The notes below the pieces were generated by a model. The model had not been told where the DNA came from and did not search any database. It was given only the letters and a program-made list of their open reading frames with translations. Of a stretch of 54,498 nucleotides of DNA, positions 1 through 25,584 are shown one piece after another. Source of the DNA: Armatimonadia bacterium. Lineage in GTDB: Bacteria; Armatimonadota; Zipacnadia; Zipacnadales; UBA11051. The stretch spans positions 1 through 54,498 of the forward strand of contig JBDKRC010000113.1 in the NCBI GenBank assembly GCA_039683575.1, written 5' to 3'. How positions within the stretch are numbered: position 1 is the first letter of the stretch; the number at the start of each line of letters is the position of its first letter. The position numbers and the translations under genes were made by a program.

Positions 1-1438
1 TGGGGCGGGGGCGTGTACACCGACGGCCGTTATCCACAACCACCAGAGCGGCGCGCTACAAACCCCCGCCCAACAGCTTCCCGACGTGGTAACACAGCAA
101 TGTGGCTACGAAGTCGAGAAACTCGAGGCCCGCGCGGACTGGATCTGGCGCAACGTGCGTGCGGAGTGGATCGCCTTCTGGTCGGAGCGCTGGGCAGCCT
201 TCTGGCAGACGGTGCTGGCGGCGCTGCATGCTGAGGGGAAGCAGGCGGTCATCAACTCCGCGTGGGGGCGTGCGCCGTTTGAGGCGCTTTACCGCTACGG
301 CGTGGACTACCAGAAGATCGCGGCGGCCGGCGTGGATGGCATGATCGTCGAGACCGCGGCGGCGGGGCTGAGCCTCGACCCGCGGGCGGCGGATGAGGGG
401 CGGCATTTCGACTTTCTCTCCATGTTTGGCCTCGTGCGCGCCTATCTGCCCGATCTGCGCCTGATCTTCCTGCACAACGCCCATGACATCGTCGAGGAGT
501 GGGACGCCCTGCGGCACGTGCCGGCAGTGCTGGAGAAGGAGATCTGGTCGCTGGCGAACGTGTGGCATGTGACCCGCAATGGAGCTCTGGAGAGCCCTCC
601 CACGGAGGTACAGAGCCATTTGCGGCCCGCTGCCGACGCCTTTCTCGTCTGCCTCGGAGATGGCCTGAGCGCCGAGGAGTGGGGCTGGCTGCGGCGCATG
701 TGGGAGTTCAGCTTCGGCGAGGCGCCGATAGGGGTGCTGGGGGCGATGCTGGTATGGTCGGATGCGGCCATGCAGGCGGAGGTGGAGGACTTCACGCAAA
801 ACCGCTGCCCGCTGTCGCACCGGCTCATCTTCGAACTGATGACCCACGGCGCGCCCATCGGTGCTACCGTACGCATCGAGGACCTGCAGGCGGCCCATGG
901 CCCGCTGCTGGTCATCAACTCCCACCTACTCCCCGCTGAGGAGATCGAGGCCCTGCTGAAGTATGACCGCGGGCCCGTGATGATGATTGGTCGCGCCGGT
1001 ACCTCGCTCAACGCCTACGTCACCAGAGGCGGGAATGCGGTCATTGTGGAAGAGCGGCGGCTGCCGGGCATGCCGGATGACGCGCAGGGACTGATCGACT
1101 CGCGCGGGTACTGGGACCACATGAAGCAGCGCCTGCCGGATGAGCGGTTCTACACCGACTGCATCCACGTCATGTGGCACCTGGTGCTGCCGGACACGTC
1201 CTTCCCGGCGGATCAGGTCTGCCTCGCGGGCCTGTGGGGTCAGGATGGGCGGCTGCGACTGGCAATCAAGAGCAAGCTCTGGGTGTACTGCAAGCCGGAG
1301 ATCAACCTGGGACGGGAGATCGAGAGCCTTGACGTAGTGACGGAGTTCCCATCAGTGCGGGTGCGGCCGGACGGGTCGAGGTTCAGCGTACGCATACCGC
1401 CACGAGGTATCGTGGTGCTTGACGTCGTCTTCAAATAG
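1..1438 (+). CDS. Hypothetical protein, 5'-truncated at window edge (possibly carbohydrate-active, TIM-barrel-like); contains REP-derived in-frame segments
   Basis: Frame of ORF 86..1438 is open back to position 2; host-like GC3 codon usage; lies upstream of a GH29 gene; no recognisable family motif. Confidence 0.65.
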   Translation, partial: GAGACTPTAVIHNHQSGALQTPAQQLPDVVTQQCGYEVEKLEARADWIWRNVRAEWIAFWSERWAAFWQTVLAALHAEGKQAVINSAWGRAPFEALYRYGVDYQKIAAAGVDGMIVETAAAGLSLDPRAADEGRHFDFLSMFGLVRAYLPDLRLIFLHNAHDIVEEWDALRHVPAVLEKEIWSLANVWHVTRNGALESPPTEVQSHLRPAADAFLVCLGDGLSAEEWGWLRRMWEFSFGEAPIGVLGAMLVWSDAAMQAEVEDFTQNRCPLSHRLIFELMTHGAPIGATVRIEDLQAAHGPLLVINSHLLPAEEIEALLKYDRGPVMMIGRAGTSLNAYVTRGGNAVIVEERRLPGMPDDAQGLIDSRGYWDHMKQRLPDERFYTDCIHVMWHLVLPDTSFPADQVCLAGLWGQDGRLRLAIKSKLWVYCKPEINLGREIESLDVVTEFPSVRVRPDGSRFSVRIPPRGIVVLDVVFK

Positions 1439-20624: not shown

Positions 20625-20700
20625 TGGTGGGCCCGGCCGGATTTGAACCAGCGACCAATCGGTTATGAGCCGACTGCTCTAACCGCTGAGCTACGGGCCC
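20625..20700 (-). tRNA. tRNA-Ile2 (anticodon CAT, lysidine-type)
   Basis: Minus strand GGGCCCGTAGCTCAGCGGTTAGAGCAGTCGGCTCATAACCGATTGGTCGCTGGTTCAAATCCGGCCGGGCCCACCA, 76 nt with encoded CCA; CTCATAA loop; paired G1-C72; position after rpoD as for E. coli ileX. Confidence 0.92.
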
Positions 20701-20778: not shown

Positions 20779-22854
20779 CTATTCCAGGTAGTCCCGCAGC
20801 CGCTTGTTCCGGCTCGGATGGCGCAGCTTCTTCAGCGCCTTCGCCTCGATCTGCCGGATGCGTTCGCGGGTCACTTCAAAGATGTGCCCCACTTCTTCCA
20901 GCGTCCGCGAGTACCCGTCCTCGAGGCCGAAGCGGAGCTTCAGCACCTCGCGCTCGCGCTCGCTCAGGCTCCCCAGCACCTTCTCGAGCTGCTCGCGCAG
21001 CACCATGTTCGAGGCGGCATCTACCGGCGTATGGATCTCTTCATCCGGCACGAAGTCGCCCAGATGGCTGTTCTCTTCCTCGCCCACCGGCGCCTCGAGC
21101 GACAGCGGCTCCGGCGCGATGCGCTTGATCTCGCTGACCCGCTCCAGCGGCATGTCCATCTCCGCCGCCACTTCCTCCAGCGTGGGCTCTCGGCCCAACT
21201 GCTGCAAGAGTTGCCGGGAGGTCTTGACCAACCGGTTGATCGTCTCAACCATGTGTACCGGGATGCGAATGATCCGGCCCTGGTCGGCGATGGCGCGAGT
21301 AATGGCCTGTCTGATCCACCACGTCGCATACGTGCTGAACTTGTAGCCCTTGCGGTAGTCGAACTTCTCAACCGCCCGCATGAGCCCCATGTTACCTTCC
21401 TGGATCAGGTCCAGGAAGCTCATGGACGAACGCCCCGTATACTTGCGCGCGATGCTGACTACCAGGCGCAGGTTAGCTTCCGCCAGCGCCTGCACCGCTT
21501 CCTCGTCCTTCAGCGTCAGTGATCCGGGATCAACCGTCCCCTGATCGAGCACGCTCGAGAACTGGACGGTCAGATGCCCCGAAAGCGGCGCGCCCTTGCT
21601 CTCAGGCGGAGGAAGCTGGTTCACTATCACAGGCTGTGGCAGCTCTTCGCCGGTGTTGAAGGTAAACTGGTACGTCTCTGGCAGGTTGTAACCGGCAATC
21701 CCCTTCAGGCCGTTGCGCCCGGACTTGAGCGTCACAGTGTACGCCATATCGCCCGTCAGCGCCCGCTCGGGCACCAGCCGCACCTGCCGACGCTCGTCAT
21801 CATAGTAGACCGTCGCTGCAACGACGCTGTCCATGACGTCCTGCAGCACCACCGTCTTCTCGTTGACGCTGTCCGGCGCCAGCCGCTGGTCCAGGGTAAC
21901 CATAACTGCCCCGGCGCGCGGTGCACCCTCAGTACCGGGTGCCGGGTCTGTAGACACAACCCGAGGCGCCGCCTTGGCCGCCACGGTCTCAAAGGACACC
22001 TTCATGTCCTTTTCGAGATTGCCGTAGCCCAGGCTGCGCACGCCGCCTGTTCCGCTCTTGATGGTGAGCGTATAGCCGGTGCGATAGCGCAGGCGCTCGG
22101 TGGGAGTGAAGACGACGCGCCATGGACGCGGGCCGATCTCCAGCTCGCCAGCCACCCGCTTGCCCGCCTTGTCAGCGACGATGATGGTCTCGGCGTTGAC
22201 TGTGTCCGGCAGCACCGCGTCGCTGAAGTGCAACGCAATCAGCGGGGTGACTTCAACGTTCTTGCTTTTGTGCTTCGGAAAGACTTCAGCGACCCGCAGG
22301 CGCACATCAATGGAGCCGGTGCGGATCGTCCAGACTTCGTCCTTCTCCAGGTACCTTCCGGCGATGTCGTGCAGCCCGCCCTCGCCGCCGCGCACGGAGA
22401 TCTTGTACACCGTGTTCGGCTCCAGCCGCTCAATGGGCGTGAAGTGCAGCGAGTTCGTCAGTGCGTCAAACTCAACATTGCCCTCACTCTTTTGGATGCG
22501 ACGGGCTAGTTCGACCTCTTCCTGCGCCGAGAGCAATGGCACGCGACCGATGTCCCGCAGGTACATCCGTACGGAATCATCAATCGGGACCTCGTCGAGC
22601 TCTTCGAGTTCCTCGTCAGCCAGTGGCGCCGCTTCCTCCTCTTCCTCCTCAGCTTCCTCGTCATCAACCACGCGAATGCCGGCGTCAGTCAGCAGGCGGT
22701 ATACCTCATCAATATCCGAGGCATCCAGCTCTTCGCTCTCGCTGAGACCATCTTGGATTTCGGCGTATGTGAGCACGCCCTGGCGTTGCCCCTTGCGCAT
22801 TAGCGCACGGACTTCCTCCAGTTCGTGAATCTCAGCGTCCTTCCCCTCAGGCAA
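20779..22854 (-). CDS. rpoD: Primary RNA polymerase sigma factor RpoD with a 324-aa Ig-like (Big_5) insert between regions 1.2 and 2
   Basis: Region 1.1 ([15 protein letters not shown]), 1.2 ([16 protein letters not shown]), 2 ([41 protein letters not shown]), 3 and 4 ([21 protein letters not shown]); downstream of dnaG; TTG start at 22854 inferred from AGGAG. Confidence 0.95.
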
Positions 22855-22888
22855 AAGACAATCAACTCCTCTCGCCAGCTTGCGCTGA

Positions 22889-24886
22889 CTACTCGTCCGG
22901 CGCGGCCGGCTCCGGCTCGCTACTGGGCTGTGACGCCCCCTCACTTGCTGACAGCGCCGTCAGGCCGGCCTGATCCGAAAACCCCTCGCGCCCGGCGCCC
23001 CGGAACTTGCGGCTCAGTTGAATGAACCTTAAGAAGTCCGGATCCCCCGGTTTCATCTCTCCTCGGTCAATCGCTGCTGCAACTCTTCGCCGCCACGCCT
23101 CAAAATCCTCCCCGTCATCCTCCACTGGGTGCGAATCTGTTGTTTCTTCGTGCACGACCTCATACTCCCGCCTCAGCCCACGCATGCTCCGATACTGCAA
23201 CATCTTCTCGATAAGGCCCGTAAAGACCTCCTCGGTGCAATCATCATTACTAACAGATAACTCCACCGCGCGTTCCCGCACCCCACCCTCATCCGGCAAG
23301 GTCGGCACAATCGCCTGCGGCACGAACCCCTCATCCCCGGCACGCGCAAACAACGCCGCCGCAATTGCCTGGTGGCATTCATCATGAAAAAGATCTGGCG
23401 TCACCCGCGAGGCCAGTTCACGGCATGACGTCGTATCCGTCAGCGCCATGAACAGTAACTGCGCCTCCACGCCCAGCACGCCCGGCGGTACCTCCCCGGC
23501 CTGCCGCGCGACGGCATCGAGAATCGGCGCCCGATCCCGTGCGGCGTTCGGACGACGTCGAAAACGCGGCTGCTCGCCCGCGCGCCTCTGAAACTCCAGA
23601 CGCAGCGCCCGCGACAATGCCTCACCCCGGCCCGGATTCGATTGCGCCCAATAGTCCGCAACCCGGTCCAAAAGCTCCTGGCGCCGCGCGGGCTCGTGAA
23701 CCTTAACCAGCACATCCACCGCCGACCGCGCCGCCCGCACCCGCCCGTCACCGTCATGCACGTTATACTGCTCGAACGCCATCCGGATCTGATACTCAGG
23801 AAAGCTGATCCCAGCCGCCACCGCCTGCCGCACTGCCTCCGGTCCGCGCTGTCGCACACACTCATCCGGGTCCAGCCCGTCCGGCAGCGTGACTATCTTG
23901 GCATCAGCGTCACTGCTCTCAAATACCGCGATATTCCGCAGCGCCGCCTGCTTCCCCGCATTATCCGCATCATAGATGAAGTACAACTTCTCCGCATATC
24001 TCGACAGCAGCCGCAGGTGCGCCTCTGTCGTCGCCGTTCCCAGGCATGCCACCACGTTCTCAAACCCCGCCTGCACCAGCGCGATCACGTCCATGTAACC
24101 TTCGACAACCAGCACGGACTTGCTGGACGTGACTGCCTGCCGCGCCAGGTTCAGCCCGTAGACCGTCGCGCCCTTCTTGAACACCGCCGTGTCCGGGCTA
24201 TTGAGGTACTTCGCCTGTTCGTCCGGGTCCAGCGCCCTGCCCCCAAAGGCAATCACCCGCCCCGACACATCAACGATCGGGAACATGACCCTGTGACGGA
24301 AGACGTCGTAGTGGCCCGCCGAACTCCCCCGCGGCTTCACCAGCCCCGCCGCCTCCAGCGTCTTCTCGTTGAAACCCTTACCCGAAAGATGCCTGAGCAG
24401 GCCATCCCAGCCGTTGAGCGCATACCCGATCTTGAAGGTCTTGATGATCTCCGGCGTCAGCCCCCGCCGCTCCAGATAGTCGGCCGCCACTTTCCCCTGC
24501 GGCGAGTGAAGCATCTGCTGAAAGTACTCCGCCGCCAGCTCGTTCGCCTTCAGCGCCGTCTGGCGGTCCCGCCCGGTCTTCTCGCCGCCCGGTCCGGACG
24601 ACTTCCATTCCACGCCTGCCCGCTGTGCCAGCCGCTCCGCCGCTTCCGGAAACGTCAGGCCCTCAATCTGCATCACGAACGTGAAGATATCGCCGAACGC
24701 CCCGCAGCCAAAGCACTTCCAGTTCCCGCGCTCGGGATCGACGTAGAAAGACGCGGTCTTCTCCTGGTGGAACGGGCACCGCGCACCGAAGCGCCGCCCC
24801 ATGCGCTGGAGCGGCACGTAACGAGACACCAGTTCGACGATGTCGATCCGTCGCCTGATCTCTTCCTTGATTTCGTCGGAGGTCAT
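22889..24886 (-). CDS. dnaG: DNA primase
   Basis: [11 protein letters not shown]...WKCFGC zinc finger, [46 protein letters not shown]. Confidence 0.96.
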
Positions 24887-24975
24887 GGGTATAGGATTCT
24901 CTCGGGGTGCGGCTTTGACCTGCAGATAGCTTCCGGGTTGGTCCTCCGTGGCCGCTTGGTACTGTTTGTACCAGA

Positions 24976-25584
24976 CTATTCCACGTCGCCCAGACGAAGG
25001 GGCTCTTCTGTCTTGTCGGCAATAACCCATTCGGCGGTGTATCGTCGGAGTTTGCGGAACACTCCTAGGCCATATCTCGGACTTACGGTCTCTCCCCAAA
25101 TTGCGAGACGATACTCACCAGGGGGAAGGGCGAATGCTCTGGTCATACTTGGGGCTATCTCAGTATGCATCCTGACCGGGCCATCGAAAGACATGTATAC
25201 GGTCTCGTTGGACGAGTTGACCATGACCAGTTCTGGTGTCTGCGAAGTGGATTCCGTCTCAGTGAATGGTGAGCCACTGGGCCGCGACTGCTCCCCTTTC
25301 GGCGGCTCAAGGCTCCGTCTTCGGCCCTCGCTGAGACTAGGCGTTCGCTTCATGTCTATGGATCTGCGCACGCCGTCTGCTAAGCCATCCAGTTGCTCCG
25401 TGGTTGGCAGCAGAGGGCGATCAAGCACTGATGGTGGGTCGGCGAACAGAGAGGATCGGCATTTGAGAGACAGAACGGAGACGGTAGAAACTATCCCGAC
25501 TGCAATCAGGGACAGCCCCACCGTACGGCGCCGTCGATTCCGTACAATGACTTCTTGCCTATGCGATGGACAACTGGTACCCAT
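24976..25584 (-). CDS. Hypothetical membrane-anchored/secreted protein (atypical composition)
   Basis: 202-aa ORF with basic stretch plus hydrophobic helix and a C-terminal beta-rich segment (LPPGEYRL); weaker GC3 bias; start uncertain. Confidence 0.5.
   Translation of the reverse strand: MGTSCPSHRQEVIVRNRRRRTVGLSLIAVGIVSTVSVLSLKCRSSLFADPPSVLDRPLLPTTEQLDGLADGVRRSIDMKRTPSLSEGRRRSLEPPKGEQSRPSGSPFTETESTSQTPELVMVNSSNETVYMSFDGPVRMHTEIAPSMTRAFALPPGEYRLAIWGETVSPRYGLGVFRKLRRYTAEWVIADKTEEPLRLGDVE

Follow-up and report, generated by a model that had tools for sequence, protein, structure and literature searches.

An out-of-register triad of Big_5 immunoglobulin-like domains in the housekeeping sigma factor of Armatimonadia, with a predicted permuted third domain

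The 54,498-nucleotide contig JBDKRC010000113.1 of an Armatimonadia bacterium (assembly GCA_039683575.1; the whole contig is called the window here) carries on its reverse strand an rpoD gene, in whose product (P0001) immunoglobulin (Ig)-like domains of the Big_5 family lie between sigma regions 1.2 and 2. Ig-like folds have their domain termini at opposite ends, and the question arises how a chain of such domains could be accommodated in a cytoplasmic sigma factor, at a turn that tolerates only adjacent termini. In our opinion, it is quite probable that the insert represents a 326-residue, out-of-register Big_5 triad with a permuted third domain, which was captured as a fragment of a tandem array and forms an all-beta non-conserved region (NCR) of the housekeeping sigma factor. 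The permuted register would show how an elongated tandem array can fit such a turn.

The open reading frame (ORF) spans positions 20779..22944 on the reverse strand and encodes 721 amino acids (aa) from a GTG at 22944, from which all residue numbers are counted, in one uninterrupted frame. When compared with Pfam as a whole, P0001 gives a Big_5 (PF13205) match with an E-value of 6.9e-38 that falls into three stretches, and scanning the four pieces of the insert singly resolves their register. The first piece (22318..22482, residues 155-209) comprises strands C' to G of a split unit and matches positions 60-103 of the 105-position profile (E 9e-4, 20.4 bits). It is followed by two whole domains, namely D1 (21985..22302, residues 215-320; profile 5-105, 53.1 bits, E 5.9e-14) and D2 (21652..21969, residues 326-431; profile 4-105, 58.6 bits, E 1.1e-15), which both pass the gathering score of 23.6 bits at full length. 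The last piece (21505..21636, residues 437-480) comprises strands A to C, ends with SLTLKD and matches positions 4-42 (E 0.093, 13.9 bits). All four pieces lie on the reverse strand. An earlier reading made from the DNA letters alone, hereafter the sequence-only reading, had proposed the order C-half, D1, D2, N-half between 22482 and 21505, and the Pfam scans of the separate pieces confirm both order and coordinates.

To score the split unit as one domain, the N-half and the C-half were joined by script and compared with a surrogate hidden Markov model (HMM) trained on the 37 non-sigma Big_5 domains that this genome encodes. The rejoined unit of the window gives one alignment across positions 5-104 of 108 (30.2 bits), whereas the halves in their native order give two partial matches (60-104 and 3-44). 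With this surrogate in place of Pfam's own model, the result agrees with the expectation of the sequence-only reading that the joined halves would score as a complete Big_5 domain. Rejoined units match in 33/33 orthologs (median 27.5 bits over 99 positions), compared with ortholog medians of 4.8 bits for the N-half and 22.0 bits for the C-half alone; among shuffled controls, 26/33 gave any match, with a median of -1.9 and a maximum of 1.1 bits. In global alignments, the rejoined unit shares 26/104 positions with D1 and 28/103 with D2, while D1 and D2 share 25/111. Profile-profile comparison with hhalign gives a similar picture, with E-values of 2.9e-21 (rejoined unit vs D1), 8.8e-22 (vs D2) and 2.6e-22 (D1 vs D2); the rejoined unit reaches a probability of 99.4% across 100-103 columns, the same as for D1 with D2, and in native order the C-half alone aligns.

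The rejoined unit differs from D1 and D2 by a single gap of 7 residues, which falls exactly at the join, opposite D-KAGKRVA-G of D1. With profile positions 60-103 facing 4-42, the halves are hence complementary and break at a hairpin, as had been proposed. Because this only gap corresponds to the tip of the C-C' hairpin, the length of the insert can be written as 3 x 111 - 7 residues, that is, an out-of-register stretch of a tandem Big_5 array. The whole insert (1-326) is also colinear with contiguous stretches of ordinary giant Big_5 proteins that start and end in the middle of a domain: residues 746-1063 of P0044, which fall between its domains 695-799 and 1019-1123, align to the entire insert, and so do 747-1067 of P0048 and 595-916 of P0061. 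Read from these alignments, the insert corresponds to three Big_5 units in circularly permuted arrangement, with the break at the C-C' hairpin and the same segments in swapped order. At the DNA level, a single 30-nucleotide (nt) repeat pair (77%, chance-level) was found, as expected for old repeats.

Where exactly does this block enter the sigma factor? Region 1.2 (22483..22578, residues 123-154; Pfam PF00140, match 123-152, E 1.1e-16) ends with RRIQKSE directly before G155, and region 2 (21274..21504, residues 481-557; PF04542, match 487-557) follows directly after D480, so that the protein reads RRIQKSE-G155-NVEFD ... SLTLK-D480, again on the reverse strand. There are 324 residues between G155 and D480, and 326 with Ig character when both are counted. 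The SigA chains of B. subtilis, C. difficile and S. aureus (7ckq_F, 7l7b_F, 8x6f_E) can be aligned as far as residues 152-153 and again from 480 onwards, and have 0-1 residue of their own at the junction. The insert-less RpoD L022 from another Armatimonadota family reads RIDQGDEEAKRKLTEANLRLV at the same junction, and altogether four insert-less RpoDs of the phylum (L021-L024) read GD.(E/Q)AK. G155 and D480 align with the GD of QGDEEAK in L022, in agreement with the proposal that the insert reuses the G and D of the usual sigma junction. Judged by these alignments, the insertion site is the region 1.2/2.1 turn, the usual place of the sigma NCR. Sigma70_ner, the family of the helical E. coli-type NCR (presumably PF04546), was not among the nine Pfam families matching the whole of P0001 at E <= 1. 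The sequence-only reading had also described the sigma core as sitting in the loop of a split Ig domain. What holds of this is the permuted triad in the 1.2/2.1 turn; the sigma termini are free, and the hairpin is cut and not bridged covalently, so that a permuted Ig triad inserted in the sigma 1.2/2.1 turn is the accurate wording.

The remaining sigma regions all lie on the reverse strand and comprise region 1.1 (22600..22818, residues 43-115; PF03979, E 6.7e-15), region 3 (21016..21246, residues 567-643; PF04539, E 2.5e-26) and region 4 (20818..20979, residues 656-709; PF04545, E 4e-24). Each of the five sigma-70 regions (1.1, 1.2, 2, 3 and 4) exceeds its Pfam cut-off, as is characteristic of a group-1 sigma factor, and the sigma core is 60-72% identical to solved SigA/RpoD chains. 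Immediately upstream lies dnaG (22889..25099, reverse strand), whose primase product matches Zn_ribbon_DnaG, DNAG_N, Toprim and DnaB_bind in Pfam, and a search of the genome (G000, 96% complete) with the sigma core gives one match at E <= 1e-90. Because of the five regions, the dnaG-rpoD arrangement and this single core match, the ORF is identified as the housekeeping (primary) sigma factor RpoD, the sole primary copy of the genome.

An Ig array in a cytoplasmic protein is odd enough to suggest a chimeric contig, or a read-through that joins a sigma gene to a surface-protein gene. This oddity is, however, the only point that speaks for an assembly or annotation artefact. The frame is uninterrupted, the genome holds no second primary sigma factor, and the same architecture recurs in 32 independent database proteins, in 31/32 sampled genomes of the class and on a separate contig of a metagenome-assembled genome (L025, 63% identity), so that we regard the probability of an artefact as negligible and agree with the sequence-only reading, which had argued against a misassembly on other grounds. 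In detail, 32/32 database homologs (37-89% identity) span the whole insert, and its length is confined to 326-333 residues in 33/33 orthologs. Among 301 sampled genomes of the phylum, G000 being one of them, end-to-end matches of the insert were obtained in 26/27 genomes of the same order, the single miss being 83% complete, and in 5/5 genomes from other orders of the class. These five class-level orthologs, whose identity is only 24-27%, have the same succession of C-half, D1, D2 and N-half, the last with 44 residues and KLKD at its end, and in 5/5 joining the halves yields a single HMM alignment that spans the join. An N-half length of exactly 44 residues is found in all of them as well as in the 33/33 closer orthologs, and the comparison of repeat numbers that the sequence-only reading had suggested gave two whole domains and one split unit in all 38. 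Across orthologs, the column majority amounts to 0.97 in region 2 vs 0.56-0.68 in the insert, within which the C-half is conserved best (0.68; D1 and D2 0.58-0.63). Register, complementarity, conservation and insertion point could all be demonstrated on the sequences themselves.

One ortholog, P0013, shows no difference from its neighbours in the insert and region 2 and then continues with a clearly different region 3-4 (alignment A1, columns 601-750); it is probably a chimeric metagenome contig and was excluded from alignment A2. Outside the class, nine other genomes gave partial matches of the repeat type, and the three proteins that were opened are not sigma factors. Two of them (G174 and G209, about 700 aa), considered as possible sigma factors, were rejected as apparently secreted 4xBig_5 + Ice_binding proteins, while the third matches Big_5 once and sigma not at all. 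The genes at L016:501-2606 and L017:775-2895 (both on the reverse strand), from another family, code for products of roughly 700 aa in which a signal peptide-like N-terminus precedes four Big_5 domains in tandem and an Ice_binding domain forms the C-terminal end (Pfam was run on L016 only); they exemplify the ordinary array type that the sigma insert resembles.

RpoD frames were searched in 121 genomes and matched in 70. Most of these frames measure about 355-470 aa and lack the insert, those of nine genomes measure 603-663 aa, and the triad forms, with one exception, make up those of 687-787 aa. The exception, a 781-aa frame in G049, was rejected as a triad form, as it is an RpoD without the insert that is long only by an upstream N-terminal open stretch. 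The frames of 603-663 aa occur in other Armatimonadota families (f29, f24, f26). In the two of these that were opened (L019:415-2403 and L020:495-2336, both on the forward strand), the 1.2/2.1 junction holds about 230-240 aa of unrelated, helical-looking sequence without Big_5 or any other Pfam match, and region 3 contains a short extra stretch; this insert is a second, independent type of NCR in the phylum.

If the ends of the insert are complementary in sequence, do they also fold together? For the insert alone (36-row alignment, no sigma tether), AlphaFold2 returned a mean predicted local distance difference test score (pLDDT) of 94.7 and a predicted template modelling score (pTM) of 0.87, with all residues at >= 70. 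In this model a strand pattern with a 111-residue period runs through both halves, and pLDDT exceeds 90 in both. In the model of the whole protein (pLDDT 75.3, pTM 0.53), the blocks of the insert reach 85-93, and the AlphaFold2 models show four strands in the C-half with values above 85. Such insert-alone scores would not be expected from two unpaired half-sandwiches, and the first 55 and last 44 residues of the insert are hence predicted to fold together as a third, permuted Ig domain, much as the sequence-only reading had supposed.

The position of the insert ends can be judged from superpositions with solved sigma chains. The insert-less RpoS fragment 5h6x_A superposes on residues 137..557 of the model with 94/94 residues at a root-mean-square deviation (rmsd) of 1.7 (Z 15.7), and E. 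coli sigma-70 (7xya_F) on 120..556 at an rmsd of 2.1 over 112 residues. As the insert-less fragment superposes in full, residues 154 and 481 would be neighbours, and the insert would leave and re-enter sigma domain 2 side by side. In the model, the strands 155-160 and 476-480 begin right at these entry and exit points, and the supposition that the insert termini are adjacent and fit the 1.2/2.1 turn agrees with the RpoS superposition. D1 superposes on 3bc9_A (VIA Z 13.1, rmsd 1.6 over 95 residues) and on the CopC-like 9c14_A (Z 13.0), and D2 on CopC (6nfq_A; VIA Z 13.4, rmsd 1.6 over 94 residues); overall, the two domains fit CopC-type domains with Z 12.7-13.4 and an rmsd of 1.6-2.3 over 94-99 residues. 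The best Foldseek match of the insert model was to the tandem BIg domains of LdtMt2 (E 1.9e-11). Superpositions of two domains at once gave an rmsd of 5.7-14, and Foldseek found no solved chain that spans the three-unit geometry of the model (TMq <= 0.31). The Foldseek search of the whole-protein model against the PDB returned sigma chains only, none of them informative on the insert, and a look-up in the ESM Atlas yielded one sub-threshold sigma cluster (0.84).

Several points weigh against reading the insert as a closed triad with a role in the sigma factor. The C-half (20.4 bits) and the N-half (13.9 bits) each stay under the Big_5 cut-off of 23.6 bits alone, and the rejoined unit was scored with the surrogate HMM instead of Pfam's own model. 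When the halves were predicted as two chains, the interface score (ipSAE) was 0.46 (runs 0.43, 0.46 and 0.50), which is graded as weak support, a class in which errors outnumber correct calls if the guess was not already likely. Of the solved complexes 58/80 reached the mark, and of the mismatches 2/110, but the range up to 0.60 contains 7 of the 80 solved complexes and both mismatches. The controls scored 0.00-0.01, the runs share >= 98% of their contacts, and the partner pLDDT is >= 73. Moreover, the evidence for pairing of the halves consists of confidence values, secondary structure and the ranges of superposition, and AlphaFold may complete so familiar a fold as Ig regardless of its actual formation. 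Foldseek and VIA matched only D1 and D2, singly or paired, and as sequential aligners both are blind to a permuted unit, so that they speak neither for nor against the third domain. With respect to function, the reading is drawn from position, and the slightly negative charge of the insert gives no hint of DNA binding.

One could therefore imagine that the halves are unpaired, decayed remnants which act as linkers or rest against D1 and D2; two Ig domains would then sit on floppy tethers, without a third domain or a closed body. The sub-threshold scores of both halves and the weak-support class of the two-chain prediction would be in line with this. Decayed remnants are, however, difficult to reconcile with the C-half being the best-conserved part of the insert and with the invariant 44 residues of the N-half in 38/38 orthologs, and unpaired halves with the additive scores of the rejoined unit, the high confidence of both halves in the untethered insert model and two-chain controls close to zero. 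Altogether, we consider unpaired halves improbable. The permuted third domain and the closed body are, from our perspective, well supported by sequence and prediction, and a pairing of the halves that gives the insert a compact closed shape is what the models predict. Of the closed three-domain ring postulated by the sequence-only reading, the predictions thus agree with a third domain formed from the two ends, whereas its closure was overstated, as it is derived from confidence scores.

With respect to the origin of the triad, the most likely scenario is that, before the class diverged, an out-of-register fragment was captured from the gene of a tandem Big_5 surface protein. Tandem Big_5 arrays are abundant, with matches in 5111 library proteins at E <= 0.001, and the genome itself holds 37 further Big_5 matches in large frames of up to 4649 aa (contigs C63, C79, C238, C275 and others). 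The search for a donor, which the sequence-only reading had proposed, covered genomes and the protein library and returned giant tandem Big_5 proteins of about 24-32% identity as the best non-sigma relatives, with nothing closer than about 32%; within the same genome, the closest Big_5 protein to the sigma units lies on C63 (28% identity, E 3.7e-7). Among the best 150 library representatives (to about E 1e-40), a sigma core was found only in P0029, and no combination of sigma and Big_5 was seen outside the lineage.

The sequence-only reading had favoured a different route, in which a circle of three repeats is excised from a surface-protein gene, integrates into rpoD and is opened at the hairpin. 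The appeal of a circle is that recombination between repeats automatically yields a whole number of periods and that any opening point permutes a unit, and arrays from which it could have been cut are plentiful (37 matches in the genome and 5111 library proteins). Its product is, however, indistinguishable from a captured linear fragment and equally from an amplification in situ, the length is three periods minus 7 and not three, the searches made gave no donor above about 32% identity, DNA repeats are no longer present, and as the event predates the class, the evidence at the junction is gone. The circle is not needed to explain the insert, and we rate it as quite improbable.

A third possibility is that a single unit of C-half and N-half was inserted and then duplicated in tandem within rpoD, giving C-(N-C)-(N-C)-N, which is exactly the observed order. 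Trees of single units bear on this point, as a branch separates all 36 sigma units (P, D1 and D2 of 12 orthologs) from the others, both from 45 Big_5 units (37 of this genome and 8 from two relatives; Shimodaira-Hasegawa-like approximate likelihood ratio test (SH-aLRT) 99; P 88, D1 99, D2 84) and from 93 units from 26 of the best library matches (SH-aLRT 90; P 90, D1 97, D2 96). From this grouping it follows that the triad is older than the order and that its units are nearer to each other than to the sampled outsiders. The three positional classes P, D1 and D2 are equidistant, which would likewise be in line with an amplification. However, D1 and D2 have C-C' hairpins of normal length, which head-to-tail copies of a cut unit would lack, and no sigma factor with one or two units was found among the RpoD frames of the 70 matching genomes, while all 38 orthologs carry two whole domains. 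In addition, the sigma units are 25-27% charged vs 16% in the other Big_5 domains of the genome, chiefly through more Asp and Glu, and the tree tool flagged their odd composition, so that their clade may be partly compositional. Amplification in situ hence appears unlikely, if somewhat less so than the circle, and the capture of a linear fragment remains our preferred scenario. The shift in charge is consistent with a long residence of the units in a cytoplasmic protein.

At the 5' end of the gene, the longest frame (window 22852-22944, reverse strand) overlaps the end of dnaG. The orthologs of P0001 start at the residue aligned to L31, and an AGGAG box lies 11 nt upstream of TTG 22854, just past the dnaG stop TAG at 22891-22889. 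For these two reasons, the true start of rpoD is probably TTG 22854-22852, which would give a protein of 691 aa, and the first 30 residues of P0001 are probably untranslated. About 80 nt downstream of the rpoD stop, a tRNA-Met gene (CAT) is located at 20625-20700 on the reverse strand, with its own sigma-70-like promoter match at 20753-20726 (reverse strand, 10/12). No terminator-like site was found after rpoD.

How could such a block be tolerated by the host protein? It would start in the middle of a unit (strand C'), pass through two whole units and stop in the middle of a unit (strand C), so that D1 and D2 would represent a 222-residue link between the native termini of the permuted domain. 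Owing to the cut at a beta-hairpin, the ends of the block would lie side by side and plug directly into the 1.2/2.1 turn, sigma domain 2 could keep its normal fold, and a compact three-domain body would project from it. Judging from its position, the triad is probably a lineage-specific, all-beta form of the sigma NCR on the outer face of sigma-2. The net charge of the insert ranges from -1 to -23 in 33 orthologs, with D1 being mildly basic in the closer ones, and because the triad is mildly acidic overall, we would favour, with low confidence, a docking or steric platform over a DNA clamp. One could further speculate that the self-closing three-Ig ring acts as a built-in initiation co-factor which holds the upstream DNA or the clamp, or docks class-specific regulators; such a beta-sandwich platform would do the job that is done elsewhere by helical NCRs, RbpA or CarD, and would represent a native, selected out-of-register capture closed by half-domains about 220 residues apart. 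We put this joint view forward as a tentative possibility that is rather doubtful at present.

Lineage-specific inserts in RNA polymerase and sigma factors shape promoter melting and regulation, and both the NCR site and its lineage-specific inserts were known before. New are the Ig-like fold, the domain count and the predicted way of closing the block through a split, permuted domain; an all-beta NCR of three Ig domains that a class has kept would add a new structural type to the sigma-NCRs. Our literature search, whose scope left out most subscription journals and supplementary files, gave no description of Ig domains in a sigma factor, and it turned up no transcription study in Armatimonadota. 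The triad would provide a native case of the half-domain complementation that has until now been reported as a misfolding of tandem Ig domains. If the ring is moreover the co-factor speculated on above, the surface of the essential sigma factor was remodelled in an entire bacterial class, and there would be a general evolutionary recipe for placing rod-like repeat domains in tight loops.

Among known systems, the helical sigma-NCRs of E. coli sigma-70 and of the spirochaete sigma factor occupy the same 1.2/2.1 site and are, like the triad, lineage-specific. These NCRs are alpha-helical, whereas the Armatimonadia insert is all-beta, consists of three Ig-like units without a match to Sigma70_ner and would be closed by a split, permuted domain. 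Within the phylum, the helical-looking insert of L019 and L020 shares the junction with the triad but is unrelated to it. CopC, the BIg A/B domains of LdtMt2 and the S-layer protein SbsC are Ig-like as well, D1 and D2 superposing on the CopC type and LdtMt2 being the best Foldseek match, but these domains are secreted or periplasmic and linear, unlike the sigma triad. In beta-propellers, the Velcro closure produces a closed repeat assembly in which the last unit is completed by strands from both ends of the chain; fold and scale are different there and single strands are involved, whereas in the triad whole half-domains would pair and the ends run on into the host protein. Regarding the spirochaete sigma factor, the helical NCR protrusion is described as contacting positions -17 to -19 and occupying the place of the C-terminal region of RbpA (10.64898/2026.02.09.704077). 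For tandem Ig-like repeats, it has been described that complementary parts of neighbours can form one domain and that the C-part followed by the N-part amounts to a circular permutant; in the account given by a 2019 review, constructs of two domains misfold into this state, for which no structure had been deposited by then (PMC6863430). In the sigma triad, the corresponding arrangement would be native and conserved, with two whole domains as connector and the host at the cut. A parallel in the transcription machinery is the beta' insert SI3 in the trigger loop of E. coli and cyanobacteria, in which repeated beta-rich domains (sandwich-barrel hybrid motifs) sit in a tight loop and return to their point of entry, as in the triad. 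According to the description of the cyanobacterial enzyme, the SI3 array extends to sigma domain 2 and has a stabilising effect on the open complex, and its chain returns by nesting in normal order, with fin and body each built from an early and a late segment (424-478 + 884-973 and 478-619 + 729-884, respectively; PMC10120043). Besides the differences in fold (Big_5 Ig-like) and subunit (sigma), the triad would hence reach the same end by another way, namely by circular permutation, with the late half of its split domain coming first.

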